Shown one piece after another: positions 3,986 to 60,082 of a stretch of 64,000 nt of DNA. Below the pieces are notes generated by a model. The model was not told the DNA's origin and ran no database searches. It saw nothing but the letters and a program-made list of their open reading frames with translations. Positions within the stretch are counted from its first letter, which is position 1, and every line of letters begins with the position of its first letter. The stretch is from an uncultured Gammaproteobacteria bacterium (GTDB lineage Bacteria; Patescibacteriota; Microgenomatia; Levybacterales; GWA1-39-11): contig CAZAJO010000005.1 in assembly GCA_964485575.1 (NCBI GenBank), forward strand, positions 1,389-65,388, written 5' to 3'. The position numbers were made by a program, and so were the translations under genes.

Positions 3986-4993
3986 TTAGTGTATGAATGC
4001 AAGATACAGACCGATAAGTGCAAAAGCAAATCCCATTAGCCATCCGCGCATAACAACCTTTGGCTCCTCCCACCCGCGCTTGAGGAAATACAGATGAAGA
4101 GGTGCAATAGGAAAAGCTTTTCTTTTCAAGAATTTCTTTGAAAGGATCTGGATAAGAGATGATCCTACTTCAACGATGTATACTCCTCCAATAACTGCAA
4201 CAGCCAATTCTTTTCCGGTCAGAAGTCCTATGACTGCAAGTGCTGCACCAAGAGACAAAGACCCCACATCCCCCAACCACAATCGGGCCTTATAGATATT
4301 GAAGTAAAGAAAAGCTCCTACGGAGCCTAAAAGGATAGCTATAAAGATGGCAAGAAAATCGTTGAGAAGTGTTTTTGAAATGACAAGAAATGCGCAAAGA
4401 CATATCAAAAGGACTCCACAAGAAAGACCGTCTAGACCATCTGTGATATTGAATGCATTTGTAAAACTCACGATAACAAATGCCGCAAAAAGGATATATA
4501 AAGGACCAAGCATTATTTCTCCCATTGCTGGAATATGTACAAATGTATACCCATTCATGAATAGAACCCACCCGATAAGAAGCCCTAATATCCATTGGAT
4601 GATGAATTTATGCTTGAATCTCAACCCAAAAAACCCGGTCCGCTCCACATTTAGTATCTTTTTTATGTCGTCGTAAAATCCGAGTGCTCCAAATGCAACG
4701 AAAGAAAAAAGGAGAACAAATAGCTCCCATGGCTTAACGTCAACCCTAAAAAGTCCATACGCCCAGAGAGTAAGGATAGTCACGACAAAGATAATAAGAA
4801 GCCCACCTCCGATGGGGGTTCCGACTTTCCAATCATGCATCTTGTCGAAAAGATACGTCCTATTGTTGAACACGTCTCTTGTCTTTTGTTTCTGTCTCTG
4901 AAGTTTCATCTTATAGAGGAAGTCTATAAATGGAACGATCAGGATAGAGGTTATGAAAAGAGAAAGAATCGCAAAACCAAATACTTTGTCCAT
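3986..4993 (-). CDS. mraY: Phospho-N-acetylmuramoyl-pentapeptide transferase MraY
   Basis: 335 aa polytopic membrane protein with MraY/WecA family motifs (NAFNITDGLDGL, GDVGSLSLG). Confidence 0.9.
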   Translation of the reverse strand: MDKVFGFAILSLFITSILIVPFIDFLYKMKLQRQKQKTRDVFNNRTYLFDKMHDWKVGTPIGGGLLIIFVVTILTLWAYGLFRVDVKPWELFVLLFSFVAFGALGFYDDIKKILNVERTGFFGLRFKHKFIIQWILGLLIGWVLFMNGYTFVHIPAMGEIMLGPLYILFAAFVIVSFTNAFNITDGLDGLSCGVLLICLCAFLVISKTLLNDFLAIFIAILLGSVGAFLYFNIYKARLWLGDVGSLSLGAALAVIGLLTGKELAVAVIGGVYIVEVGSSLIQILSKKFLKRKAFPIAPLHLYFLKRGWEEPKVVMRGWLMGFAFALIGLYLAFIH

Positions 4994-5716: not shown

Positions 5717-6443
5717 CTGAAAGCAGTGTTTCCGCAGCTACGAGATCATCTTTTGTGTTAACTCCATGCCATTTACCATCAGTCAATTTGTGAGCAGCGA
5801 TTTTTCCTTTCTGATGAGCGATGATATCTATGATGTCTGTGATGTAATACTCACCCGTGACAGGATTTTTGTGAATTTCTGAGATATTGTCTTCCAGATA
5901 CTTTTTGTTGATGACATAACATCCTAAATTTACTTCTTTAATTTTCTTTTGTTCATCTGTCGCATTCTTCTCCTCTACAATTCCTATCACTTCGTTGTTT
6001 TCGTCACGGATTATTCTTCCAAGCCCTGTCGGGTCATCAGAATCCATAGTCACAAAAGTTATCTTTGCTCCTTCATCGATATGAGTCTGATAAAGATTTT
6101 TGAAAGTTGTTGCCGTATGAAGAAATGAATCATCTCCATATAATATAAGAAGGTCTTGAGTGTCACTAGGCACTTTAGGAAGTGCTGACACTACAGCATG
6201 CCCTGTTCCCAACTGTTCTGTCTGCTCTGCGACAATGATATCTTCTGAAAGCAAGGGAAGGACTGATTCTTTCGCAAACCCGACAACGACAACGATATGT
6301 GAAAGCCCTGCTTCTTTTAGAATAGAGAGTGTTCTTGCAAGCATGGGTTGCCCAGCAACGTGCATTGCGACTTTATTCGTGTCGGTTGACTGCATCCGTG
6401 TTCCACGGCCGGCAGCCAAAATAATTGCAGTCAAATTGCGCAT
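5703..6443 (-). CDS. Sugar-1-phosphate nucleotidyltransferase, GlmU N-terminal-like (UDP-GlcNAc pyrophosphorylase-like)
   Basis: N-terminal AIILAAGRGTRM pyrophosphorylase signature; 246 aa. Confidence 0.75.
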   Translation of the reverse strand: MRNLTAIILAAGRGTRMQSTDTNKVAMHVAGQPMLARTLSILKEAGLSHIVVVVGFAKESVLPLLSEDIIVAEQTEQLGTGHAVVSALPKVPSDTQDLLILYGDDSFLHTATTFKNLYQTHIDEGAKITFVTMDSDDPTGLGRIIRDENNEVIGIVEEKNATDEQKKIKEVNLGCYVINKKYLEDNISEIHKNPVTGEYYITDIIDIIAHQKGKIAAHKLTDGKWHGVNTKDDLVAAETLLSDGSK

Positions 6444-6444
6444 C

Positions 6445-7773
6445 TTAGTAATCCTCTTGGTCTTCTTTTATATCTGCTCCAACTGCAGACAGTCTTTCAA
6501 CAAATTTTTCATATCCACGCTCTATATGCTCTATCCCATAAACAACGCTTTCACCTTTTGCTATAAGAGAAGCAATGACAACCGTTGCTCCTGCTCGAAG
6601 ATCACTGACGGTAAGAACAGCATTGTGAAGGTTTTTTGGACCTGAAATTCTTATGGCCTGCTTGTAGGTAACTTTTGGATCGTAGTTGAAATTGTAAACC
6701 TCTTCAGGATTTGAAACCTCCGGATCAAAAAAGTCAATTTTAGCACCCATTTTTCGAAGTTCTGATACGTATCCAAATCTATTTTCATAAATTGTTTCGT
6801 GAATTGTTGATTCCCCAACGGCTTGGGTAGTTAAAATCGCCCAAGGTCCCTGCCAGTCGGTCTTGAATCCTGGCTCTGGTGCTGTTGTGACATTTGTTGG
6901 AGCGAGTCCATTTTTTGAGAAAAACCTTACTTTTCCATCTATCTCCTCGTATGTACCACCTGCACTTTCTAATTCTTTCAAAAATTCTCCGACATTTGTC
7001 AAATTGGCATTCTCAAGAAAGATATTCCCACCGGTAAGGATGGATAGCACTGCAAATGTTACTAATTCATTACCATCAGACACTATCTCGTACGATGTTC
7101 CGTGCAATTTCTCAACTCCCGTGATCTCTATTCTTCTTCCCTCAAGCCTTTTTATGTTAGCCCCCATATTATTAAGAAGCCCTATAAGGTCATCAATCTC
7201 GTGTTCTTCCGCAGCATTCTCAATAACAGTTGTGCCTTTTGCTAACGTTGCTGCCATGATCAAAGTCTCAGTTCCTGTATGGGTATTTTTTTCAAATCTG
7301 TACGTTGTGCCGGTAAGTCCTTCTGTTGTTGCATGATAATACCCGTCTTCAGATTTGTACTCTATTTTTGCACCCATCTGCTCAAGACCTTCAATATGTC
7401 TTTCGATAGGTCGCGCTCCGAGTCTGCATCCTTCAGGGTTGGGGACTACAGCGTTACCGGTTCTTAGTAACAAAGGGGATATAAACATCGATGAGGTCCT
7501 AACCCTTGCTCCTTCAGCAAGTGAAATAGTGTGGTTTTTTATTTCTTTTACGGTTATCGTAACCTCCCCATCCTGTCTTTCAACAGTTCCTCCAATTGAT
7601 TCTATGACCTCTAAAAGCGCTTCGATATCCGAAATCTCAGGAACATTTTTAAGAGTAACGGGCTCTGAGGTAAGACAGGCTGCAATCACTGCCTTTGTCA
7701 CGACATTCTTAGATCCCGAGATCCGGATCACACCTGAAAGAGCGTTCCCTCCTTTTATAATATATTGCTTCAT
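6445..7773 (-). CDS. murA: UDP-N-acetylglucosamine 1-carboxyvinyltransferase MurA
   Basis: 442 aa with the EPSP-synthase-like fold and N-terminal IKGGNALSGVIRISGSKN signature. Confidence 0.9.
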   Translation of the reverse strand: MKQYIIKGGNALSGVIRISGSKNVVTKAVIAACLTSEPVTLKNVPEISDIEALLEVIESIGGTVERQDGEVTITVKEIKNHTISLAEGARVRTSSMFISPLLLRTGNAVVPNPEGCRLGARPIERHIEGLEQMGAKIEYKSEDGYYHATTEGLTGTTYRFEKNTHTGTETLIMAATLAKGTTVIENAAEEHEIDDLIGLLNNMGANIKRLEGRRIEITGVEKLHGTSYEIVSDGNELVTFAVLSILTGGNIFLENANLTNVGEFLKELESAGGTYEEIDGKVRFFSKNGLAPTNVTTAPEPGFKTDWQGPWAILTTQAVGESTIHETIYENRFGYVSELRKMGAKIDFFDPEVSNPEEVYNFNYDPKVTYKQAIRISGPKNLHNAVLTVSDLRAGATVVIASLIAKGESVVYGIEHIERGYEKFVERLSAVGADIKEDQEDY

Positions 7774-7781
7774 AGTGATTA

Positions 7782-7850
7782 CGTTAACGTGTTCACGGGT
7801 TAACGCGTTCTAACTTTTTAACTCGTTAACTTTTTAGCCCGTAACTAACT
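7782..7850. repeat. GTTAAC-rich intergenic repeat element, copy A (murA/murC spacer)
   Basis: Reads cgttaacgtgttcacgggttaacgcgttctaactttttaactcgttaactttttagcccgtaac. It is about 85 percent identical to the reverse complement of copy C at 47125..47186. Confidence 0.7.
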
Positions 7851-9308: not shown

Positions 9309-9342
9309 TGTTAACGGGTTTTAACTTTTTAACTCATTAACC
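9309..9342. repeat. GTTAAC-rich intergenic repeat element, copy B (murC/murE spacer, half-length)
   Basis: Reads gttaacgggttttaactttttaactcattaac, which matches the core of copy A. Confidence 0.6.
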
Positions 9343-10560
9343 TTTTAACATCTCTTTCACCACTTCTTGGTCGCTCCAGGCAACCTCCCCACTACCATAA
9401 TTCATTGATTTTTCGTGCCCCTTACCTGTAATTATCACTGAATCCTTTTGTCCGGCAATTGATATGGCAAATTCGATAGCTTTTTTCCGGTCGTCTATCT
9501 CATATACTGTTTTTCCTTCTAAGTGACCTTCTTCAGTTTCATTCAGAAATTCGTTACTAATGCCATCCTTTATTTGCCTATTTATATCCTCAACTTTTTC
9601 AGACCGGGGATCCTCAGACGTCAAAATAATGATGTCATCATAAAATGAGGCGACTTTGCCCATCTCAGGTCTTTTTCCACTGTCCCGAAGCCCGGCAGCA
9701 CCAAAGACATGGATAAGCTTTCCCTCGGTTCTTTTGCGTATTTCAGGCAAAATATTTTCAAATGAATTTGCGGTATGCGCAAAATCAACCATAATAAGAG
9801 GTCCTTTTGAGCTACCTATGACTTCTTGTCTACCATTTGGAGCTTCAAAGCTTTGGACAGCACTATCAATCGTCAATGGATCTATCCCAAGAGCAATGCA
9901 TGCAGCAGCGGACGCAATAATATTTTCAAGATTAAAGTCTCCGATAAGGTTTGTCTTTATCTGAAAGGGTAGATTGATCATTGAAAGATCATCGTCATTA
10001 TTGCCATGAAGCGAATAACTGATCATCTTTTCTTTTGGAAGTACTTTTTGGACTTCAGAAAACCACTGACCATTACTGTTGACTATCGCAAGATCAGATC
10101 TTTTAAGAAGTCTTAACTTTGTCCGAACATAATTCATGTAGTCTTTGTGATAATCCAAATGCTCGTGAGTAATATTTGTCAGAACCCCTATATTAAATTT
10201 CACTCCCCATACCCTATTTTGATCAAGAGCGTGAGACGTCACTTCAAGTACGATATGGGTGCATCCCATCTTTTTTGCGAGGCGGATATATTTTTGAATA
10301 GCAAATGGAGAAGGGGTCGTTACATGAAACCCGGTGTCGTATGCCTTCCCATCTATTATCGCTCCTATTGTTGAGATAACAGCAGCTTTTTTCCCCGCAG
10401 TACGCAAAATATGATAAATCAGATTTGAAGTAGTCGTCTTTCCATCTGTTCCCGTGACACCTATTACCGTAAGGCCCTTTGAGGGAAACCTGTTATAAAT
10501 GGTTGCTGTCAAAGCTTGTGCCAGGTGTCCCGTATTTTTTATTTTTCTGATGGTGGACAT
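9337..10560 (-). CDS. murE: UDP-N-acetylmuramoyl-tripeptide ligase MurE-like Mur ligase
   Basis: VIGVTGTDGKTTT P-loop, a VDFAHT motif and Mur ligase domain order. Assignment as MurE rather than MurF rests on the position and the DxAH motif, so it is inference. Confidence 0.7.
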   Translation of the reverse strand: MSTIRKIKNTGHLAQALTATIYNRFPSKGLTVIGVTGTDGKTTTSNLIYHILRTAGKKAAVISTIGAIIDGKAYDTGFHVTTPSPFAIQKYIRLAKKMGCTHIVLEVTSHALDQNRVWGVKFNIGVLTNITHEHLDYHKDYMNYVRTKLRLLKRSDLAIVNSNGQWFSEVQKVLPKEKMISYSLHGNNDDDLSMINLPFQIKTNLIGDFNLENIIASAAACIALGIDPLTIDSAVQSFEAPNGRQEVIGSSKGPLIMVDFAHTANSFENILPEIRKRTEGKLIHVFGAAGLRDSGKRPEMGKVASFYDDIIILTSEDPRSEKVEDINRQIKDGISNEFLNETEEGHLEGKTVYEIDDRKKAIEFAISIAGQKDSVIITGKGHEKSMNYGSGEVAWSDQEVVKEMLKG

Positions 10561-12546: not shown

Positions 12547-12605
12547 AGTTAGTTTACATAAAACTTCAAACTTAAAACTTTTAATTCTTTTTTAAAGTTT
12601 TTGGT

Positions 12606-30141: not shown

Positions 30142-30362
30142 AAGGAGAAATTATATCACACAATCAAGAATTTTGAGGTTAATTTTCTTTTTTTCTGTCA
30201 ATCCTTTCCTGTACTTTTGAACAAAATTATCTTTGTAAAAGCTCCTTCTCGTTGTGTCATAAGGTCTTTACATACCCACCTTGTTACATTGCACTGTAGC
30301 ACTGTAACAATGTAATGATTTTGGAGTCTGTACAAAAATCGTGCTAATATAATAATTCAGTT

Positions 30363-30701
30363 ATGGCGACACTTCAGTCAACTGTGGACTTTATAACTTC
30401 TCAAATAGACAACGCGGGGATGATAACCAGTCGCAAGATGTTTGGGGAATATGCACTTTATTGTGAAGGGAAAGTCATCGCATTTGTCTGTGACGACTCA
30501 TTATTTCTCAAACCTACAAAAGAGGCAAAGGAATTTTTCCCTGAATCACAAGACGCTCCTGCCTACCCCGGGTCAAAAATGTATATGTTAATTCCGGAGG
30601 AGAAATGGGAAGACAGAGAATTCATGTCAGAACTTGTAACTATTACCTATTCCGCTCTTCCAGCAGTCATACCAAAACGAGTTAAAAAGTTAAAGAGTTA
30701 A
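30363..30701 (+). CDS. TfoX N-terminal domain family protein
   Basis: RKMFGEYALYCEGKVIAFVCDDSLFLK matches the TfoX/Sxy N-terminal domain signature. Confidence 0.6.
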   Translation: MATLQSTVDFITSQIDNAGMITSRKMFGEYALYCEGKVIAFVCDDSLFLKPTKEAKEFFPESQDAPAYPGSKMYMLIPEEKWEDREFMSELVTITYSALPAVIPKRVKKLKS

Positions 30702-30722
30702 AGATTATTTTAATCTCAAATG

Positions 30723-36622: not shown

Positions 36623-37750
36623 TTATACACCACTCTTTCCAGTTGAGATCTTTTCCCAAGGAAAACCTGTGCGACCGAAGTGACCATAGGCAGCAGTTGA
36701 GCTGTAAATCGGTCGTGCCAACTTTAACGTTTCGATAATAGACCTGACTGACGTATCAATGAGCTTATCCTTAAAATCAAATAGCGCCTTCTCACTCACA
36801 GTAGATGTACCGAAGGTCTCAATTGTCTGCATTAGAGGTCTTGGCTGCCCTATGACATATGCAAGACCAACTTCACATTTTGTAGCAAGACCAGATGCTA
36901 CAATATTTTTTGCGATATAACGGGCAGCATATGCTCCTGATCTGTCGACTTTACTAGGATCTTTTCCAGAGAAAGCGCCACCACCAACCCGCGCGTATCC
37001 TCCATATGTGTCAACGACAATCTTTCTACCCGTAAGTCCAGCATCTGACTCCGGACCTGGGATATGCCACAATCCTGTACCGTTAATAGTTATGTCTGAG
37101 TCTTTCGGAAGCTCTAGTTTGTATTTTCTAAGAACGGGTCTGAAGACATTTTTGATGATCTCATCCCTAACTTGATCAGCTTCCGTCTTTTCATCATGGG
37201 CAACTGCTGCAACGAGTTTTTCTATCCCAATCGGGATACCTTTTTCGTATTTGACTGTCACTTGAGCTTTCCCATCTGGGCGTAGCCATTTCAATATTTT
37301 CTTCTCCCTCACCTCATCTATGCGCTCAACTAAAGCATGTGCCATTCTTATGGGTAAGGGCATCAACTCAGGTGTTTCATTACAGGCATACCCAAACATC
37401 ATGCCTTGATCTCCTGCTCCATCAAGGTCAACACCCATTGCAATTTCTGGAGATTGAGCGTGTATACTGTTGGTGAAAGAAGATTTCTGGCTGAATCCCC
37501 ATGCGGGAACAGTATACCCAAGTTCCTTTACTTTATTTCTGGCTATTTTTTCAAAATTGATTTTTGACTTAGTTCTTATCTCACCAAAAAGACAAATTTG
37601 ATTTGCACCGGCAACAGTCTCTATGCCACATCTGGAATTTGGGTCAGAGGCAAGAGCTGCATCCACAATTGCGTCACTTATCTGATCGCAAATCTTGTCG
37701 GGATGTCCTGCACAAACTGATTCTGAAGTAAAAAGGTAATTCTTTGACAT
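36623..37750 (-). CDS. metK: S-adenosylmethionine synthetase MetK
   Basis: GHPDKICDQISDAIVDA signature. The true start is probably the ATG at 37750 (MSKNYLFTSESV), not the upstream TTG at 37768. Confidence 0.9.
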   Translation of the reverse strand: MSKNYLFTSESVCAGHPDKICDQISDAIVDAALASDPNSRCGIETVAGANQICLFGEIRTKSKINFEKIARNKVKELGYTVPAWGFSQKSSFTNSIHAQSPEIAMGVDLDGAGDQGMMFGYACNETPELMPLPIRMAHALVERIDEVREKKILKWLRPDGKAQVTVKYEKGIPIGIEKLVAAVAHDEKTEADQVRDEIIKNVFRPVLRKYKLELPKDSDITINGTGLWHIPGPESDAGLTGRKIVVDTYGGYARVGGGAFSGKDPSKVDRSGAYAARYIAKNIVASGLATKCEVGLAYVIGQPRPLMQTIETFGTSTVSEKALFDFKDKLIDTSVRSIIETLKLARPIYSSTAAYGHFGRTGFPWEKISTGKSGV

Positions 37751-37757
37751 AATTTTT

Positions 37758-37846
37758 TCCTTGGGCAAGGACGCATCGCTTTGGCAAGCTTGGCACCGAT
37801 AAATTTACGGTTGCCGTTCGTAGCTATACGAAACTCTTGATGCAGA
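37758..37846 (-). promoter_or_regulatory. Candidate SAM-I-family (S-box-like) riboswitch with SD-sequestering hairpin in the metK leader
   Basis: The minus-strand leader reads UCUGCAUCAAGAG...CGGCAACC...GGUGCCAA...AAAGCGAUGCG. It shares the exact octamers AUCAAGAG, CGGCAACC and GGUGCCAA, in the same order, with the canonical yitJ/metF S-box, as I recall it. P1 pairs GCAUC with GAUGC, and UCCUU/AAGGA pairing sequesters the SD. Confidence 0.4.
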
Positions 37847-37883
37847 TATTATTTAAACAAATTGGGAAAAGAAAAACAAGAGA

Positions 37884-47106: not shown

Positions 47107-47124
47107 AGTTTATTCATTTATAAA

Positions 47125-47186
47125 GTTAACGAGTTAAAAAGTTAAAGTGTTAACGCGTTAACACGTTAACAAGTGAACCCGTAAAC
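47125..47186. repeat. GTTAAC-rich intergenic repeat element, copy C (GT4/GT2 spacer)
   Basis: Reads gttaacgagttaaaaagttaaagtgttaacgcgttaacacgttaacaagtgaacccgtaaac. Confidence 0.7.
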
Positions 47187-48079
47187 TACGATGTTAATTT
47201 TTTGAGCTTGATACCAATTTTAACCAAACCAGTAACTATTGGATTGTACTTATTCTTATAGTGCTTGTCATAAAATATTTCCATAGCTCGAAACCTGTGA
47301 TAAGTTGCAAGTTTTTTTGTAGATTTAGATGCTTTTGTTATACCTTTTGACACTTTCTTAATTCCGCTTGAGACTCCCTTCATATGTAATGCCGCAAATT
47401 CAGGGACAAAATAGATCTTATATCCTGCCTCTTTGATACGATAACAAAAATCAATATCCTCCCCATAAAAGAAGAAGTCCTCATCCCACCATTCTAATTT
47501 ATCACCAAGGCCGCGAGGCACTATCATAAATGATCCAGCCAAAGCATCTATCTCGTGCGTTTTAGAAAGATCGAGATATGTCATGTTGTATCCTCCAAAT
47601 TTCTTTGACTTGGGAAATACTTTTGATAGTCCTGAGAAATGGGATAATGCCCTAAAAGGAGTCGGAAAACCCCGATGTGATGAGTCGTCTAAGGTTCCAT
47701 CCGGCAATTTCATAAAGCATGTTGCTGCTCCACATTCAGGGTGCCCCTTCATGAATTCTATCATTCCATCGATTGTTTTTAAGTACATCTTTGTGTCAGG
47801 ATTTAGGAAAAGCAGATATTTTCCTGAGGATTTCTTTATTCCTAAATTATTCCCTTTAGAAAATCCATAGTTCCTGTCGTTATGAATATAAACTACTTTG
47901 TCATTGTCTTTGAAGTTTTCCAAAACAACATTCTTTGTCTCATCATTTTCACTGTTATCAGATATGATGATTTCAAACGTGTGATCAGTGGTCGTTTCCA
48001 GAACTGAATTAACACAACCGACAATAGTGTCAGTTGAATTGTAGGAAACGATTACTATGGATACGTCAAGACTTTTCAT
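47186..48079 (-). CDS. Glycosyltransferase family 2
   Basis: N-terminal VSIVIVSYNS... and a DNSEND-type DxD region, as in the GT-A fold. Confidence 0.8.
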   Translation of the reverse strand: MKSLDVSIVIVSYNSTDTIVGCVNSVLETTTDHTFEIIISDNSENDETKNVVLENFKDNDKVVYIHNDRNYGFSKGNNLGIKKSSGKYLLFLNPDTKMYLKTIDGMIEFMKGHPECGAATCFMKLPDGTLDDSSHRGFPTPFRALSHFSGLSKVFPKSKKFGGYNMTYLDLSKTHEIDALAGSFMIVPRGLGDKLEWWDEDFFFYGEDIDFCYRIKEAGYKIYFVPEFAALHMKGVSSGIKKVSKGITKASKSTKKLATYHRFRAMEIFYDKHYKNKYNPIVTGLVKIGIKLKKLTS

Positions 48080-55413: not shown

Positions 55414-56534
55414 AGTTTAACTCCCGCTACTTCTTCAATTGCACTAAGTACTTCTTTTGCTGCTTTCTCCCATGTAAATTTCTTATAATGTTCCCGTCCA
55501 CGCTCTATCATTTTCTCCCTTAAAGATCTATCTGTCAAAACTTTTTCGATTGATTTCTTGATATCATCAACATCCTCCGGCTCAAAATATTGCGCAGCAT
55601 CCCCACCAGCTTCCGGAAGAGAAGAAACGTTACTTGTAATTACAGGGCATCCATATCGCATTGCTTCTAAAACTGGTAATCCAAACCCCTCGTAAAGACT
55701 TGGAAGCACAAAAACTTCAGCCTTTCTATAGAAATTCGGAAGATCTTCATCTGAGATGTAATCAAGAAACACAACCTTGTCTTTTACGTTATACTTTTCA
55801 GGAGCAGACAAAATGTCTTCATACAACCATCCTTTTTTACCTATTATCACTAATTGGTGGTCTGATGAAATTTCTTTGGGAAGTCTTGAAAATGCTTCAA
55901 TAAGTCTTGAAATGTTCTTCCTCGGCTGAAGAGTTCCGACAAAAAGGATGAATTTTTGATTGACTCCAAATTCTTTTAGATCTTTTTCAGAGGGTGCATT
56001 CATAGATAAATTCTTTAGTCCCAAATGTACAACTTTTACTTTTTCCGGCCTTACTTTGTAGTACTTAATTATATCATTTTTACTACTATTACTAATGGTT
56101 ATGACTTTCTTTGCTTTCTTAACCGAATATTCAGTCCATTTTGTCAATTGATACAGATCATTTTTCTTGAAAGTTTGTGGATAGTGAAGATACGACAAAT
56201 CCATGACAGAGACTATTGTAGGGATTCTGGAAAAACGTGGTCCGTAGTGTGTCAATGTCAGAAAAACATCAGGCTTTCTTGATGTCGTTATGAGATGGAT
56301 TGGAAGCCCGATTTGAGTCCAAAGCTTTGACGGTTTTACAACTTTATAGTTCCACCACGAAGTTTTATTAGGCAAATGCTCCAAAGGATCAGACTTCAGA
56401 TAGATCGTATAGTTATAGTCATTATCATTTACCTCACGAAATGCATAAAGCTTTATCAGTATTTGATATGCGTACTCAGAAATTCCGACGCGGGAGAGAA
56501 CATTTGCCTCATTTGCATCAATACCGATATTCAT
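55410..56534 (-). CDS. Glycosyltransferase family 4
   Basis: EGFGLPVLEAMRYGCPVITSNVSSLPEAGGDAA motif. Confidence 0.8.
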   Translation of the reverse strand: MNIGIDANEANVLSRVGISEYAYQILIKLYAFREVNDNDYNYTIYLKSDPLEHLPNKTSWWNYKVVKPSKLWTQIGLPIHLITTSRKPDVFLTLTHYGPRFSRIPTIVSVMDLSYLHYPQTFKKNDLYQLTKWTEYSVKKAKKVITISNSSKNDIIKYYKVRPEKVKVVHLGLKNLSMNAPSEKDLKEFGVNQKFILFVGTLQPRKNISRLIEAFSRLPKEISSDHQLVIIGKKGWLYEDILSAPEKYNVKDKVVFLDYISDEDLPNFYRKAEVFVLPSLYEGFGLPVLEAMRYGCPVITSNVSSLPEAGGDAAQYFEPEDVDDIKKSIEKVLTDRSLREKMIERGREHYKKFTWEKAAKEVLSAIEEVAGVKL

Positions 56535-56569: not shown

Positions 56570-58153
56570 ATGTTTAAATTAGTATTTTCGGGAAAACTGA
56601 GAATTATCCTAACTGTTTTAATTGTTGCCTTCTTGTTTGGTGTACTATACAAACTCTATATCCCAAGAATAAATGCTTTTGGATGCTTTGATGACTGCTT
56701 TAACATAGTCGGTGGTTATTTCATTTTGGGTGGAAAAACACTCTACAAAGATCTTTTCTTCAACCACCAACCGGGAATGGCTATATTAAGTGCTGCCATT
56801 CAAGCAATTACTCATCCTGATTCTATCCCAGAACTGATACTTCGCCATAGACAAGTCATTTTTCTCATATCCTTTCTTGCCACCTTGATCATTACAATAA
56901 GGTTTGGCCTGTTTTTCATACTTTTTTCTATTCTTTATGAGTTAACAAAATTTTATGTATTCGGTGATAGATTTTTGGCAGAGGGAATAGTTGGATACTT
57001 TCTGATTTATCAACTTGGAGCAAATCTTGAAAAAATGCTTTTCAAAAAAGTTCACAAAATAGATATCTTCCTCATACCAATGTTTACGTGGGCGGTGATA
57101 TTTTTACGTGAACCTTTTACGCTTGTTACGGCAGTATTGTTTGTATCCTACTTTTTTTCAACCCCAAAGCTTGTAGATAAGGAGGCCAAAACATATTTAG
57201 CAGCTTTTGCGATTCCAACAATAATCACCCTACTTTGCACATATCTTCCCGGTTATTTCTTCAATATGGTGACGGTCAACAAAATAATTCTTAATTCCGA
57301 ATCACAAGGACAACCGCTACCTGTCAGACTTATAAAAAGCCTACTTTATCCTTTTTATCTTCTTGTTGGTAGTGAAAACTGGAATTATTTCAGGACAATA
57401 ACTGCTTCTTTTTCAATCTTTTTCATAGTCACATCGGTTGTATTTCTGAAGTATCTAAAAAAACCATTTGTGTTATTTCTTATTATTGGTATTCTTGCGT
57501 TATCTAACCTAAGACCCCCCGTTGCCAATCAAACGTTCTATGAAAGTTTTCATATTGCACCATGGTATGGACTTCTGATTTTTTCAATTATTTTTCTTGT
57601 GAAGACAATCAATCTCAAATCCAAAAAAATTGCTTTAGCACTTGTAGTTTTTATCTTACTGTTCGGTGTTTATATAATCTCAGACCTTAGATATTTTGGA
57701 TACGAAAAAACGGATCTTCAAAATGAATTCTTCACAAATTACAGTGTGGTCATGGGAAGAGGAACAATTATTAGAGACCTTTCAGACAGTAAAAGCACTC
57801 TCTTTCTTGATGACTATGACGATCTTGTATATTTTGAAGCAAAATTGACGCCTTCCTACAAATACAGCTGGTACACATCCTTCATGAATCAGGTACCAAA
57901 ATACATCGATGCACGGGAAGAAATGTTTATGAATTATCCTCCGGATTTTTATTATGGAGACTGCAAAGGTGGCCAAGGTGTTTTACCGACTTACATCAAA
58001 AATAATTATCTTGAAGTGTTTGAAGGAGAGAATGTGACATGCATTCATGTTTCAAAAGACAGAATCGGAAAATTTACTGACAAACAGAAGGAATTGACAC
58101 ACACAATCTACTCCTTAAGAGAGAGTACGAAAGCTGCAACGCTAAACAATTAA
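56570..58153 (+). CDS. Hypothetical polytopic membrane protein (possible polysaccharide polymerase/glycosyltransferase)
   Basis: 527 aa with about 12 TM helices. It is the only plus-strand gene embedded in the glycosylation locus. Confidence 0.45.
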   Translation: MFKLVFSGKLRIILTVLIVAFLFGVLYKLYIPRINAFGCFDDCFNIVGGYFILGGKTLYKDLFFNHQPGMAILSAAIQAITHPDSIPELILRHRQVIFLISFLATLIITIRFGLFFILFSILYELTKFYVFGDRFLAEGIVGYFLIYQLGANLEKMLFKKVHKIDIFLIPMFTWAVIFLREPFTLVTAVLFVSYFFSTPKLVDKEAKTYLAAFAIPTIITLLCTYLPGYFFNMVTVNKIILNSESQGQPLPVRLIKSLLYPFYLLVGSENWNYFRTITASFSIFFIVTSVVFLKYLKKPFVLFLIIGILALSNLRPPVANQTFYESFHIAPWYGLLIFSIIFLVKTINLKSKKIALALVVFILLFGVYIISDLRYFGYEKTDLQNEFFTNYSVVMGRGTIIRDLSDSKSTLFLDDYDDLVYFEAKLTPSYKYSWYTSFMNQVPKYIDAREEMFMNYPPDFYYGDCKGGQGVLPTYIKNNYLEVFEGENVTCIHVSKDRIGKFTDKQKELTHTIYSLRESTKAATLNN

Positions 58154-58689
58154 AAAAGAGGTAACCCCGGGTAAATAACTTTGAGTTTGCTTTTTTCAAT
58201 ATTTAATAGTTTGCCTGCATCATTTTTAGTTGAATCTGAAATACAAAATATTAAGTCACTCTCCTTCTTGACCCAAGAGAGTTTTTTCTTTTGCACATTT
58301 ATTATTTTCGCATCTGTCTCCTTTGGAAATTTATAGATGATTAGATCATAAAGAATTGTTGCTTTTTTTGCTTTTTTTGTCGGTGGTTCAGTCCAGTCTG
58401 AAGTAATAAATAAATCAACAGGTCCGATGAATGATTCTATCGGGAACTTATGGATGTTATTCCACATAAGATTGAGAGCTGCAGGTGGGAATCTAAAAGT
58501 TTTTAATGAAACGTTTGGGTTTTTCACAAACTCATCAACTGAGGGCGGTACACTCCTTCTTAAAGACGAAAAAAATAATACATATTCATTACCATTCTGT
58601 CTGATAAGCTCACGAACCAGATTTTCTAAATAGTTAGCAACGCCGGTGTTTGAATATGCTAATTGGCTTACATCAATTCCTATTTTCAT
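58150..58689 (-). pseudogene. Truncated GT4 N-terminal domain (possible gene remnant)
   Basis: 179 aa starting MKIGIDVSQLAYSNTGVANYLENL, which parallels the N-termini of the GT4 genes at 46021..47106 and 55410..56534. It lacks the C-terminal donor-binding domain. Confidence 0.4.
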
Positions 58690-58700
58690 ATTAATTAATT

Positions 58701-58733
58701 GTTAACAAGTTAAAAAGTTAAAATGTTAACGAG
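58701..58733. repeat. GTTAAC-rich intergenic repeat element, copy D
   Basis: Reads gttaacaagttaaaaagttaaaatgttaacgag, nearly identical to the 5' half of copy C. It overlaps the stop codon of the four-helix-bundle gene. Confidence 0.65.
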
Positions 58734-59115
58734 TGGAAAATTCTCCATCACTTTTTTTTGCTTGTAAATATCTTGCAAATTTACCTATCATACTAGAAAG
58801 TTTTACAAGCTGATCACTTATAGCTAAAAATTCCTGCTCAGTAATATATCCAATTTCCTTACTTATATATAATTGAGTTCGTAGTTCGCCACATGAACCT
58901 TTTGCTATTCTCAAAAAATAAATAAATTCGTTATTATTGTTTCTCTCAAATCCCTCGGTAATGTTTGATGCTACTGAAACTGAAGCTCGTCGAAGTTGAT
59001 CAGTCAAACCGTAATCTTTTATAAATGGTGCTTTTTTTGTCATCTTATAAATTATTACAGCTATCTCAGTGGACAGTTTCCAAATCTCAAGTTCTTCAAA
59101 TTTGTGTACTTTCAT
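58726..59115 (-). CDS. Four-helix-bundle protein (23S rRNA intervening-sequence protein family, TIGR02436-like)
   Basis: 129 aa containing SVASNITEGFER...AKGSCGELRTQL, which matches the family signature as I recall it. Confidence 0.75.
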   Translation of the reverse strand: MKVHKFEELEIWKLSTEIAVIIYKMTKKAPFIKDYGLTDQLRRASVSVASNITEGFERNNNNEFIYFLRIAKGSCGELRTQLYISKEIGYITEQEFLAISDQLVKLSSMIGKFARYLQAKKSDGEFSTR

Positions 59116-59128
59116 AATCTAATTAATG

Positions 59129-59184
59129 TAACCCTTTAACCCTTTAACCCTTTAACCCTTTAACCCTTTAACCCTTTAACCCTT
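59129..59184. repeat. Tandem octamer repeat (TAACCCTT)x7
   Basis: Seven perfect head-to-tail units span the stop region of the 59168..60082 gene and the intergenic spacer up to the 4HB gene. Confidence 0.9.
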
Positions 59185-60082
59185 TAACGTTTATTTTACT
59201 GATCTTCCTTGTCTCTTTGTTGCCCAAGTATCCTAAGAAGTGCATTAATTCCACAATGATTGTGAGCCTTTGATATCGTCTCTTTAACATGAAATGCTCC
59301 CTATCCCCTACCTCTTCGTTCTCTTTCTGTTTTTCGGGGTACTTAAATGGAACAGTAACTGACACTACTCTTAACCCTTTAAAAAGGGCCTTAACGACAG
59401 GGAAAAATTGAGCATTTGAATATTCTTCAAGGTTGAATAATTTGTGCTCTAAGAGCGTATCAAATGGATTTGCATCGTAATGCGAAAAGAGATATTTCAA
59501 CTTCTTTGGGTCATTTTTAAATACCCGGGCTCCAAAAAAAACGTCAAGGTCCTCTGCGTGTGGTGATAAGAGTCCGTTTGCTCTCAAAGCTTCACTGTAA
59601 AGAAGATTTGCCTCAACTTCTGATTCAAACATGTAAGAGGGGTAGGTTTTTTTGAAGAGTGTAACCTCCCGCCTTGGGATAACCAAGTCAGCCTGATCAT
59701 TCAATACGGGGGCAACAATTTCTCTCATGCAGTCGGTCACGAGAGATACCTTTTCAATCTCTGTCATCACAATCGCTTTTACTCCAGGAATTTTTGATGC
59801 CTCAAAGATGGCCTTTCTCCTATTTGGCGATCTTTTAGGTATCTTCGCTTTGAAAAGCTTTACACCAGGAATTCTTTTAAGCTCTGCATAAAGAGTTTTT
59901 GAGCTTCCACCATCTACCAAAACGACCTTGTATCCTACCCCTGCAGCAAATTTTACAGAATATAAAATAAGGTCACCCCGAATCTTATCAGTGTGTTTTA
60001 TACTTTTCAGGGGACCGCTATACCATTTAGGTAGATATACAATACCAATCAAAGCAATTTCAGAAGGCTCAAAAGACTCCAT
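59168..60082 (-). CDS. Hypothetical protein (possibly glycosyltransferase-related)
   Basis: 304-aa ORF whose last three codons (KG-LKG) are encoded by the octamer repeat. Confidence 0.4.
   Translation of the reverse strand: MESFEPSEIALIGIVYLPKWYSGPLKSIKHTDKIRGDLILYSVKFAAGVGYKVVLVDGGSSKTLYAELKRIPGVKLFKAKIPKRSPNRRKAIFEASKIPGVKAIVMTEIEKVSLVTDCMREIVAPVLNDQADLVIPRREVTLFKKTYPSYMFESEVEANLLYSEALRANGLLSPHAEDLDVFFGARVFKNDPKKLKYLFSHYDANPFDTLLEHKLFNLEEYSNAQFFPVVKALFKGLRVVSVTVPFKYPEKQKENEEVGDREHFMLKRRYQRLTIIVELMHFLGYLGNKETRKISKINVKGLKG

Follow-up and report, generated by a model that had tools for sequence, protein, structure and literature searches.

The analysis reported here concerns a stretch of 64,000 nucleotides of contig CAZAJO010000005.1 (hereafter the window, meaning that whole stretch) and an element of short tandem repeats at positions 47123-47188, which lies at the junction between two glycosyltransferase genes (GT2 and GT4). 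This element is probably a gene-less, two-armed copy of an insertion element of the intervening-sequence type, a kind of element with derivatives that lack an open reading frame (ORF), with an array length that varies by slippage and with a putative role at the RNA level; the assignment to this class is more secure than the RNA-level function. A full version of the element, in which a gene for an intervening-sequence protein (IVP) stands between two inverted arms of tandem octamers, is located in the same window. The reading is carried by the observations that the IVP block is present or absent as one unit between near-identical strains, that gene-less copies built of the same type of unit are found, in both orientations, at further operon junctions, and that homogeneous arms change by whole 8-nt units, as expected of slipped-strand mispairing. 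The features on which the argument turns are as follows.

47123 to 47188, minus strand: copy C, a gene-less two-arm element with eight units by core scan (period 8 and 7 copies in Tandem Repeats Finder)

58691 to 59193, minus strand: the whole insertion of about 503 bp (array F, IVP gene and array D), its ends uncertain by about 2 nt

59125 to 59188, minus strand: array F, the 5' arm, (GTTAAAGG)7 with units 100% identical (period 8 and 7.5 copies in Tandem Repeats Finder)

58726 to 59115, minus strand: the IVP gene, 129 aa, 23S rRNA intervening-sequence protein, four-helix-bundle or S23p family (PF05635, E = 2.4e-37)

58699 to 58732, minus strand: array D, the 3' arm, C GTTAAC ATTTTAAC TTTTTAAC TTGTTAAC on the gene strand, overlapping the IVP stop codon

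Arrays in the window were defined by a scan for at least three GTTAA cores spaced 8 nt apart, Tandem Repeats Finder (TRF) was run in parallel, and the chance expectation for motif counts was obtained from dinucleotide shuffles. The core scan returned six loci, at 7781-7850 (A), 9310-9349 (B), 30681-30704 (E), 47123-47188 (C), 58699-58732 (D) and 59125-59188 (F), and gave 10 strand-hits where 0.03 were expected. With at most one mismatch, GTTAAAAAGTTAA occurred 10 times in the window (0.35 expected) and TTAACNNNTTAAC 38 times (7.6 expected; shuffle maximum, 20), while the bare GTTAAC hexamer, with 18 occurrences against 14.4 expected, was not enriched, 10 of the 18 sites lying within arrays. 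The four copies of a GTTAAC-rich intergenic element described in the original prediction were all recovered where it had placed them, and two further copies were added at 30681-30704 and 59125-59188. All six copies consist of head-to-tail 8-nt units of the form GTTAAnnn, with a conserved GTTAA core and a variable 3-nt spacer, and TRF likewise assigned the window arrays a period of 8; this periodicity, the variation of copy number in 8-nt steps and the adjacent IVP gene had been missed before. A pairwise identity of 80 to 90% had been given for the copies, which holds for a shared core of about 25-30 nt, whereas the mean column identity across the full alignment is 60%. According to this alignment five degenerate copies have their units in one common order.

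The window has a G+C content of 38.6% and contains a minus-strand dcw-type cell-wall cluster and a long glycosyltransferase operon, in which gaps between genes are mostly -4 to +5 nt, i.e. the genes overlap or abut. The MurA it encodes shares 76% identity with proteins of named Candidatus Levybacteria, and the organism is an uncultured, Levybacteria-like patescibacterium. The spacers at 7773/7826, 9298/9337, 47106/47186, 58689/58726 and 59115/59168 are made up almost wholly of array sequence. Each copy adjoins protein-coding ORFs and none is located in a 23S or 16S rRNA helix; an Rfam search detected no rRNA in the window, and over the whole window at the gathering score it returned only a SAM-I/IV riboswitch elsewhere and no array family. 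Since TAA is present in each unit on both strands and 8 is not divisible by 3, all six frames are closed after three units, and because of these stops the upstream ORFs terminate within the arrays. The overlap with the stop codon of the upstream gene that had been noted for several copies is indeed true of A, B, D, E and F, and follows in part from the TAA in each unit. For annotation this means that the C-terminal residues of array-adjoining genes come from the repeat. A phase-variation switch was considered and rejected, because the arrays follow the coding region and, at any copy number, the first 1-3 units already terminate the upstream ORF; TAA recurs in rotating frames along the arrays.

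Copy C extends from the GT2 stop codon to 18 nt ahead of the ATG of GT4. Its gene-strand sequence is TAG-TTTAC GGGTTCAC TTGTTAAC GTGTTAAC GC|GTTAAC ACTTTAAC TTTTTAAC TCGTTAAC, and its 8-nt units in register are GTTAACGA GTTAAAAA GTTAAAGT GTTAACGC GTTAACAC GTTAACAA GTGAACCC GTAAACTA. The left half is a three-unit arm of the type GTTNAnnn, the right half closely resembles arm D of the IVP element, and the centre, where the two arms meet, is a perfect palindrome of 18 bp (GTGTTAACGCGTTAACAC). The predicted fold is an imperfect hairpin of 23 bp (-20.4 kcal/mol, z = -3.7). Rfam searches around C with E-values up to 10 gave chance-level matches only (E >= 2.5). The sequence of C is unchanged in four close strains. 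At the same GT2|GT4 junction a sister species with 76% GT4 identity has no spacer (TAA, 2 nt and ATG), and a lineage with 83% GT4 identity has heptamers, (AGCTAGA)5, instead of C.

The full element is bounded by ...GATCAGTAAAA and (T)ATGAAAATAGG... and, in gene-strand order, is composed of the stop codon, provided by F, of the 304-aa gene upstream, 17 nt, the IVP gene and array D, after which 11 nt lead to the ATG of a truncated GT4 gene. Arrays F, a perfect (TAACCCTT)7.5 on the forward strand, and D are mutually inverted, with units of GTTAAnnn in the 5' arm and of nnnTTAAC in the 3' arm. The IVP gene is present in a single copy in the window and its product also matched TIGR02436 (123.5 bits, cut-off 24), NF008912 and the structure PDB 2GSC (XCC0516 from Xanthomonas, E = 6e-19). 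A duplex of about 37 bp (-30.4 kcal/mol, z = -4.2) is predicted between the transcripts of F and D, G.U pairs forming where GG lies opposite UU, and in the minimum-free-energy fold of the 515-nt element as a whole this duplex is the closing stem.

Comparison loci for the IVP block were reached via proteins at least 90% identical to those of the window. An empty site was found on four contigs from four samples (L240-L243), with flanks 99.8-99.9% identical to those in the window and without IVP or arrays; here the host genes overlap by ATGA and the upstream gene encodes 297 aa, compared with 304 aa in the window. Because these contigs lack the block at near-identical flanks, it represents a discrete insertion of about 503 bp in the window. 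A sister species (contig Ga0114917_10020; about 77% DNA identity, 92% MurA identity) has the IVP block at the same junction, where the block is about 90% identical and the flanks 63-80%, with a sharp drop just beyond the right arm; third-codon-position identity is 79% for the IVP gene and 50-51% for both neighbouring genes. Being far less diverged than its flanks, the block is younger than the divergence of the hosts, which points to horizontal movement to the same site; a slower clock is less likely. Identity at codon positions 1+2 of the IVP gene reaches 96%, and the protein is under purifying selection. In array D, 5 of 12 spacer positions but none of 20 TTAAC core positions are substituted relative to the sister species (Fisher p ~0.004, hand-computed). 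Array F has 7 units in the window and in two other contigs (L002/L003), 16 in a third (L001) and at least 14 in two more (L004/L005).

Many of the short-read contigs (L001-L016, L137) begin 43 nt before the IVP gene, inside a perfect (GTTAAAGG)n, and in these genomes the arrays systematically cause assemblies to break. The GT4 gene that follows the IVP element (58150-58689, minus strand) is an N-terminal half only, of 179 aa with the Glyco_transf_4 domain alone, and ends 4 nt inside a convergent ORF of 527 aa (56570-58153, plus strand) without Pfam or NCBIfam match. The truncation is not recent, since the arrangement is common to all strains and the sister species.

To keep the choice independent of the repeats, IVP genes elsewhere were sampled through conserved peptide patterns, using the best 80 of 558 metagenome matches (42-58% identical to the window IVP). 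An array of period 7-9 was found within 120 nt upstream of the IVP gene at 63 of 72 loci and downstream at 66 of 72, and arrays stood on both sides at 54 of 64 (84%). The period was equal on both sides at 59 of 61 loci (7/7 at 28, 8/8 at 16 and 9/9 at 15). The two arms are reverse-complementary although the units vary between loci, as in the pairs ACGAGTTA/TAACTCGT, GTTTCGG/AACCCGA, GGTCCAAG/TGGACCTT, AGTTCCAG/AACTCTGG and AGTAAGCG/CTCGCTTA; with units that differ, such complementarity amounts to covariation of entire arms. RNA duplexes computed between upstream and downstream arms of 64 loci had a median of -68 kcal/mol, compared with -44 kcal/mol in shuffles (z < -3 in 75%), and the best ungapped stem had a median of 35 bp, 81% of it Watson-Crick. 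Arrays are concentrated beside IVP genes (3.3/kb, compared with 0.40/kb elsewhere in the same loci), and the distant arrays in IVP contigs carry the unit of the local arm in 11 of 25 cases, where 0.8 were expected and the maximum in 1000 permutations was 5. Because of this sharing each genome has its own unit type for gene-carrying and solo arrays alike, and the window conforms to this. In a contig of Salinimicrobium xinjiangense (L070) two IVP genes lie 1.7 kb apart (4151-4537 and 6261-6659), one flanked by octamers of the GGGGACTT/AAGTCCCC type and the other by CAATTAAC arrays, so that several unit types, each with its own IVP, can coexist in one genome.

The remaining three copies in the window carry no IVP gene and are located at other gene junctions.

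7781 to 7850, minus strand: copy A, between the stop codon of a Mur ligase gene (490 aa) and the start of a murA-like gene (EPSP_synthase fold)

9310 to 9349, minus strand: copy B, between two Mur ligase genes, overlapping the upstream stop codon

30681 to 30704, plus strand: copy E, a single-arm array GTTAAAAA GTTAAAGA GTTAAAGA in a convergent spacer, which gives a TfoX_N gene its stop codon

Copy A is a gene-less element of the C type in opposite orientation, inside which the upstream ORF terminates; that A and C are oppositely oriented had been proposed at the outset, and the reverse complement of A does align with C, both host gene pairs being on the minus strand. In related strains the junction of A contains 2 or 10 GTTAAAGA units, i.e. 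it is polymorphic in 8-nt steps. On the gene strand B reads GTTAAAAG GTTAATGA GTTAAAAA GTTAAAAC CC GTTAAC, and a longer B in related strains contains a perfect palindrome of 22 bp (GTTGACGTGTTAACACGTCAAC). E is identical in eight strains. At the murC|murA junction a relative with 87% MurA identity has (AGTAAAT)3(AGTAAAA)3 and one with 81% identity has no array. Since both this junction and GT2|GT4 differ among related lineages, junction arrays turn over quickly; they are gained, lost and replaced over short time scales with lineage-specific units. Sister lineages have heptamers (AGCTAGA, AGTAAAT/AGTAAAA and AGTCATT) at junctions where the window has octamers (L246/L247 at 2450-2500; L236/L237 at the murC|murA and murE ends); each lineage has a unit type and period of its own, at a junction that is used again.

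Solo arrays in other genomes were sought with an exact pattern of four TTAAC cores at 8-nt spacing, one genome per species, which yielded at least 120 loci; the statements in this paragraph hold among the matches listed. They fell mostly in Bacteroidota, and also in Planctomycetota, Patescibacteria, Cloacimonadota, Atribacterota, Clostridia, Melainabacteria and a few Gammaproteobacteria, with units as diverse as CAATTAAC, GGATTAAC, TCCTTAAC, TACTTAAC, CCCTTAAC and others. Arrays with TTAAC on the coding strand stop 6-30 nt short of the downstream ATG, and those with GTTAA on the coding strand abut or overlap the upstream stop codon. An inverted GTTAA partner of the TTAAC arrays was found on the 5' side at 26 of 123 loci and on the 3' side at 1 of 123. 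Placement and arm polarity are consistent with a hairpin whose GTTAA arm extends from the upstream stop and whose TTAAC arm extends to the downstream start, and the better-preserved arm would be the one caught by the search pattern. Gene-less inverted array pairs occur at L181 (2823-2890), L205 (3129-3240), L061, L084, L098 and L129, their arms of about 32 nt standing 5-50 nt apart; this arm length equals that around IVP genes. None of about 105 arrays that could be placed lay within an ORF. A lack of intergenic bias had been named as the result that would overturn the element; the bias is there, but because stops in all six frames keep arrays out of ORFs in any case, it is uninformative.

These data also bear on the simplest alternative, that the arrays are plain microsatellites, produced by neutral in-place slippage of AT-rich junctions that merely tolerate stop-rich repeats, with no relation to IVP. 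Homogeneous arrays do vary in unit steps, units and periods do differ at the same junction in sister lineages, most arrays elsewhere are solo among the matches listed, and stops in all frames would bar any such array from ORFs; long simple-sequence repeats of 5-11 nt, which PMC4679880 cites from Mrazek, are moreover described there as occurring in many bacteria. Neutral slippage, however, does not account for cores that are conserved while spacers vary, within arrays as well as between species (0/20 compared with 5/12 in D), for one unit order in the five degenerate copies, or for inverted pairs of fixed polarity (26 to 1 among the matches listed). Nor does it account for arrays that appear and disappear with the IVP gene as one block, for matching complementary arrays on both sides of 84% of the sampled IVP genes with both flanks available, or for solo arrays that share their unit type with local IVP arms. 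We therefore consider a microsatellite origin unlikely.

If C is a copy of an intervening-sequence-type element, the full element at about 58691-59193, i.e. an IVP/S23p gene between two inverted tandem-octamer arms, would insert at stop/start junctions of co-transcribed genes, where the arm beside the upstream gene would give it its stop codon and the other arm would end a few nucleotides before the next start. The arms may then pair in the operon transcript into a long stem, modelled at about 37 bp with G.U pairs included for the full element and, for C, as the 23-bp imperfect hairpin followed by U-rich units. By analogy with the RNase III-cut stems of 23S rRNA intervening sequences (IVSs), such a stem could act as a site of RNA processing, attenuation or insulation. 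Copies A, B and C would be non-autonomous gene-less derivatives of the IVP element type or independently inserted hairpins of that type. Support from folding energy differs among the copies, with z scores of -5.4 for D and -3.7 for C and a weak hairpin in B (z = -2.05).

The hairpin of C might also be read as an intercistronic terminator or attenuator of the host, which would lower transcription of the downstream glycosyltransferase genes. The scan for consensus terminators gave one match, where 0.2 were expected, at 47171-47148 on the gene strand (a 10-bp stem with 4 G-C pairs, then CTTTAACTTT), and the z score of the hairpin agrees with such a role. The U-tract after the stem is interrupted, however, and the copies in opposite orientation lack such a tail; in A and B A-rich units precede the stem and no U-run follows it. 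In the sister species this junction lacks a spacer altogether, and a terminator leaves the periodicity, the variation in copy number and the link to IVP unexplained. For these reasons a host terminator is very improbable.

The original prediction had favoured either a repeat resembling repetitive extragenic palindromes (REPs) or MITEs (miniature transposable elements with inverted repeats), or a palindromic operator in which a dimeric regulator binds GTTAAC and TTAA half-sites. The resemblance to REPs and MITEs stands in part, as the copies are scattered over intergenic sites in both orientations and are palindromic in part, the version with IVP is a discrete insertion, and C is absent in the sister species. 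It fails in that the flanked gene encodes the four-helix-bundle IVP (PF05635/TIGR02436) and neither a REP-associated tyrosine transposase (RAYT) nor another transposase, and no target-site duplication was seen. The gene between the inverted arms matched only PF05635 in Pfam and four-helix-bundle models in NCBIfam, and no RAYT-like ORF or transposase domain was found among ten array-flanking ORFs scanned. With REPs and REPINs the window shares dispersed intergenic imperfect palindromes in both orientations (six copies in 64 kb), repeat types specific to a genome, and a single gene between inverted copies of the genome's own repeat; it differs in having a four-helix bundle in place of an IS200/IS605-type Y1 transposase, arms that are tandem arrays and not single palindromes, and no conserved GTAG-type head. 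MITEs, which are non-autonomous and derive from insertion sequences, are alike in their short gene-less copies, ends in common with a longer gene-carrying element, hairpins and either orientation, but the parent here encodes IVP only and no transposase, no target-site duplication was detected, and tandem arrays that vary in length form the ends.

The operator reading finds no support, since the sites lie in packed operons at stop/start junctions and not at promoters, comprise 3 to 16 units, and have the GTTAAC palindrome in some units only, and since unrelated heptamers occupy the same junctions in sister lineages. The 18-bp perfect palindrome GTGTTAACGCGTTAACAC in C and that of 22 bp in a relative of B would suit a dimeric regulator, just as a gene between inverted copies of a genome's dispersed repeat recalls REP/RAYT units. 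The unit number is variable, though, many units are non-palindromic, E and F have no dyad, and the flanked gene belongs to PF05635. A dimeric-regulator operator, or a classical REP serviced by a RAYT transposase, is thus scarcely credible.

Another explanation, which overlaps the preferred reading and does not exclude it, is that the units are binding sites, on RNA or DNA, for a pentameric toroidal IVP. Arrays that flank the IVP gene would then serve autoregulation or packaging, solo arrays at stop/start junctions would form a putative post-transcriptional regulon, and (GUUAAAGG)5, (GTTAAAGG)5 and (UUUUUAAC)4 would be putative targets. IVP is the sole protein encoded by the element and is under purifying selection, and XCC0516 (2GSC) was deposited as five chains of one sequence; PMC4990558, citing Lin 2006, describes it as a homopentameric toroid. 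Arms typically have 4-5 units, or about 32-37 nt (medians of 4.6, 4.4 and 4.1 units for periods 7, 8 and 9), many units of the 5' arm have a GTYNAA-type core, and genome-specific unit types extend to the solo arrays. The repeat period is partly heritable on the IVP tree, nearest IVP relatives having an equal period in 68% of cases compared with 36% expected. An unidentified binding protein has also been postulated for similar repeats by MacGregor, in the Nostoc study and in the Geobacter paper. On the other hand, when arm length was compared as fixed in units or fixed in nucleotides the outcome was intermediate, neither being cleanly constant across periods; 32% of nearest relatives differ in period; covariation of protein and repeat is equally expected from linked inheritance; and array size spans 3 to more than 20 units. 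As the explanation of the arrays, binding by IVP is quite improbable.

The insertion-element reading is best compared with the IVSs of 23S rRNA in Leptospira and Coxiella, the closest described system. In the IVS of Coxiella burnetii, RNase III cleaves a 28-bp inverted-repeat stem whose loop contains an S23p ORF, and upstream of that ORF are GACAGAT heptamers in tandem, their number differing between strains; rRNA IVSs are regarded as selfish, possibly once-mobile elements (PMC4990558). The full element, though not C, likewise has a PF05635 ORF in the loop, and an enclosing terminal inverted-repeat stem (about 28-35 bp) and variable short tandem repeats are common to both systems. Differences lie in the host site, which in the window is the stop/start junction of protein genes and not an rRNA helix, in the unit of 8 nt, in both arms being wholly tandem arrays, and in the gene-less copies and the filled/empty polymorphism documented here; cleavage by RNase III is known for the IVS, whereas the stem here is a predicted one. 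IVP ORFs have also been reported in 16S and 23S rRNA insertions of the Candidate Phyla Radiation (CPR), and PMC3936711 notes IVP genes lying between cas genes.

The copies show the features of short tandem intergenic repeats of the TAACTGA, short tandemly repeated repetitive (STRR) or long simple-sequence repeat (LSSR) type, namely head-to-tail intergenic units of 5-11 nt and strain variation by whole units. The STRR heptamers of cyanobacteria are a related case. 'Heptamer repeats' near start codons have been reported in Nostoc. TAACTGA heptamers are intergenic in Beggiatoaceae, Cyanobacteria and some Bacteroidetes, differ between strains in steps of 7 nt, and have been proposed as binding sites of S1, Csp or CsrA (MacGregor 2015, PMC4679880). 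Like the window arrays they mostly lie a few nucleotides upstream of a start or overlap the end of the upstream ORF, differ between strains by whole units, are stop-rich and patchy in phylogeny, and have a TAAC core; they differ in their period (7, compared with 8 here) and are described as direct repeats without inverted partners or mention of IVP (PMC4679880). Paired opposite-strand sites of 3-5 tandem 7-9-nt units in Geobacter metallireducens (GTTGCTYN x4, TCTCCGTS[Y] x3 and MTYCTGA x5) were read as IHF/HU sites (Aklujkar 2009, PMC2700814). Class 1 of these sites (GTTGCTYN x4) often neighbours insertion sequences of the IS110 (ISGme8) and IS481 (ISGme9) families at a fixed distance (PMC2700814, table S4). 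The Geobacter sites are like the window arrays in being intergenic, including operon-internal junctions (proB|proA, moaA|mosC), in numbering tens per genome and in being absent from the sister species. They differ in the IHF/HU reading, in that no link to IVP was noted, and in that class 1 is a hot spot for IS110/IS481, an insertion of a kind not seen here. The targeting of REP elements by IS110 is a parallel to the class 1 sites. Descriptions of the repeats in PMC4679880, in Nostoc and in PMC2700814 do not mention IVP, and the IVP reports from cas loci and CPR rRNA do not mention arms. Within the incomplete coverage of our literature search we found no paper that generalises an IVP gene between inverted tandem-repeat arms outside rRNA, and none that documents filled/empty polymorphism of such elements.

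Several points weigh against the interpretation of C as a copy of an IVP element. IVP has no recognisable transposase or nuclease fold, so that no mechanism of movement can be named, and comparison of the filled with the empty site revealed no target-site duplication beyond A/T-rich similarity. The empty C site comes from a species with only 76% GT4 identity, while close strains are invariant, and the differing units at one junction in sister lineages could arise by in-situ slippage. Measured against shuffles, no significant fold was found for A, E or F alone, and a hairpin role cannot cover all arrays. Pairing between arms shows an excess of G.U over A.C, as folding of the sense RNA would produce, but the excess is modest (165 to 110 pooled, p = 0.001) and not robust when counted by locus (28 to 20 loci). 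That solo arrays descend from IVP elements is inferred from arm polarity and from the units they have in common, and among the matches listed an IVP gene lies within 40 bp of only 4 of about 125 TTAAC-type arrays, most being solo. At those four and at the second IVP of L070, with its GGGGACTT-type octamers, the gene again stands between short tandem arrays, which are inverted in three; the exceptions are L103, with one clear arm only, and the CAATTAAC-flanked IVP of L070, with direct arrays on both sides. Finally, all comparison sequences are metagenome assemblies, and the IVP sample is without other branches of PF05635 such as Avd, the accessory protein of diversity-generating retroelements (DGRs).

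To our knowledge the 23S_rRNA_IVP/S23p family, a large one, has been without known function since the early 1990s. The present evidence ties it to recurrent heptamer and octamer arrays at gene junctions, each of which had earlier been given a different guessed role. If the interpretation is true, operon junctions and rRNA helices in many phyla are colonised by a class of small mobile elements, CPR genomes being heavily populated, and both the recurrent contig breaks and spurious 'functional associations' of IVP, e.g. with cas operons, are explained. A much broader proposal, which is doubtful, would unite IVP/S23p and tandem-repeat hairpins in a single pan-bacterial system, glimpsed in fragments over 30 years, in which the IVP toroid, a pentamer, would recognise the 7-9-nt units that make up its own arms. 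Its pieces would be the rRNA IVSs, the cyanobacterial STRRs, the TAACTGA repeats of Beggiatoa, the 'global regulator sites' of Geobacter and the IVP genes in cas loci. IVP would then mobilise or maintain both gene-carrying elements and gene-less hairpins, in a partnership like that of REPIN and RAYT without the transposase fold, and the arms might be made by template-directed repeat synthesis, given the kinship of the family with Avd. We regard as resemblances only a likeness to telomere repeats (TTAAAGGG compared with TTTTAGGG of Chlamydomonas), a complementarity to 16S rRNA, and a similarity to the omega leader of tobacco mosaic virus with its 8-nt repeats.

Other short repeats and elements were observed in the window. 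The TfoX_N gene that has array E at its 3' end also has GCACTGTA x3 (period 8) in the divergent spacer upstream, at 30291-30314. The heptamers AGTTTTA AGTTTGA AGTTTTA (gene strand) at 12556-12580, in the 59-nt spacer just upstream of a 94-aa gene after mraW, may form a short array with a different kind of unit. The SAM-I/IV riboswitch is located at 37743-37848 on the minus strand (47.5 bits, gathering score 41.1), upstream of a 381-aa ORF (36623-37768). At 55866-55920 a repeat with a period of 21 nt (2.6 copies, 73% match) lies in frame inside a GT4 ORF of 374 aa and is probably a coding repeat.

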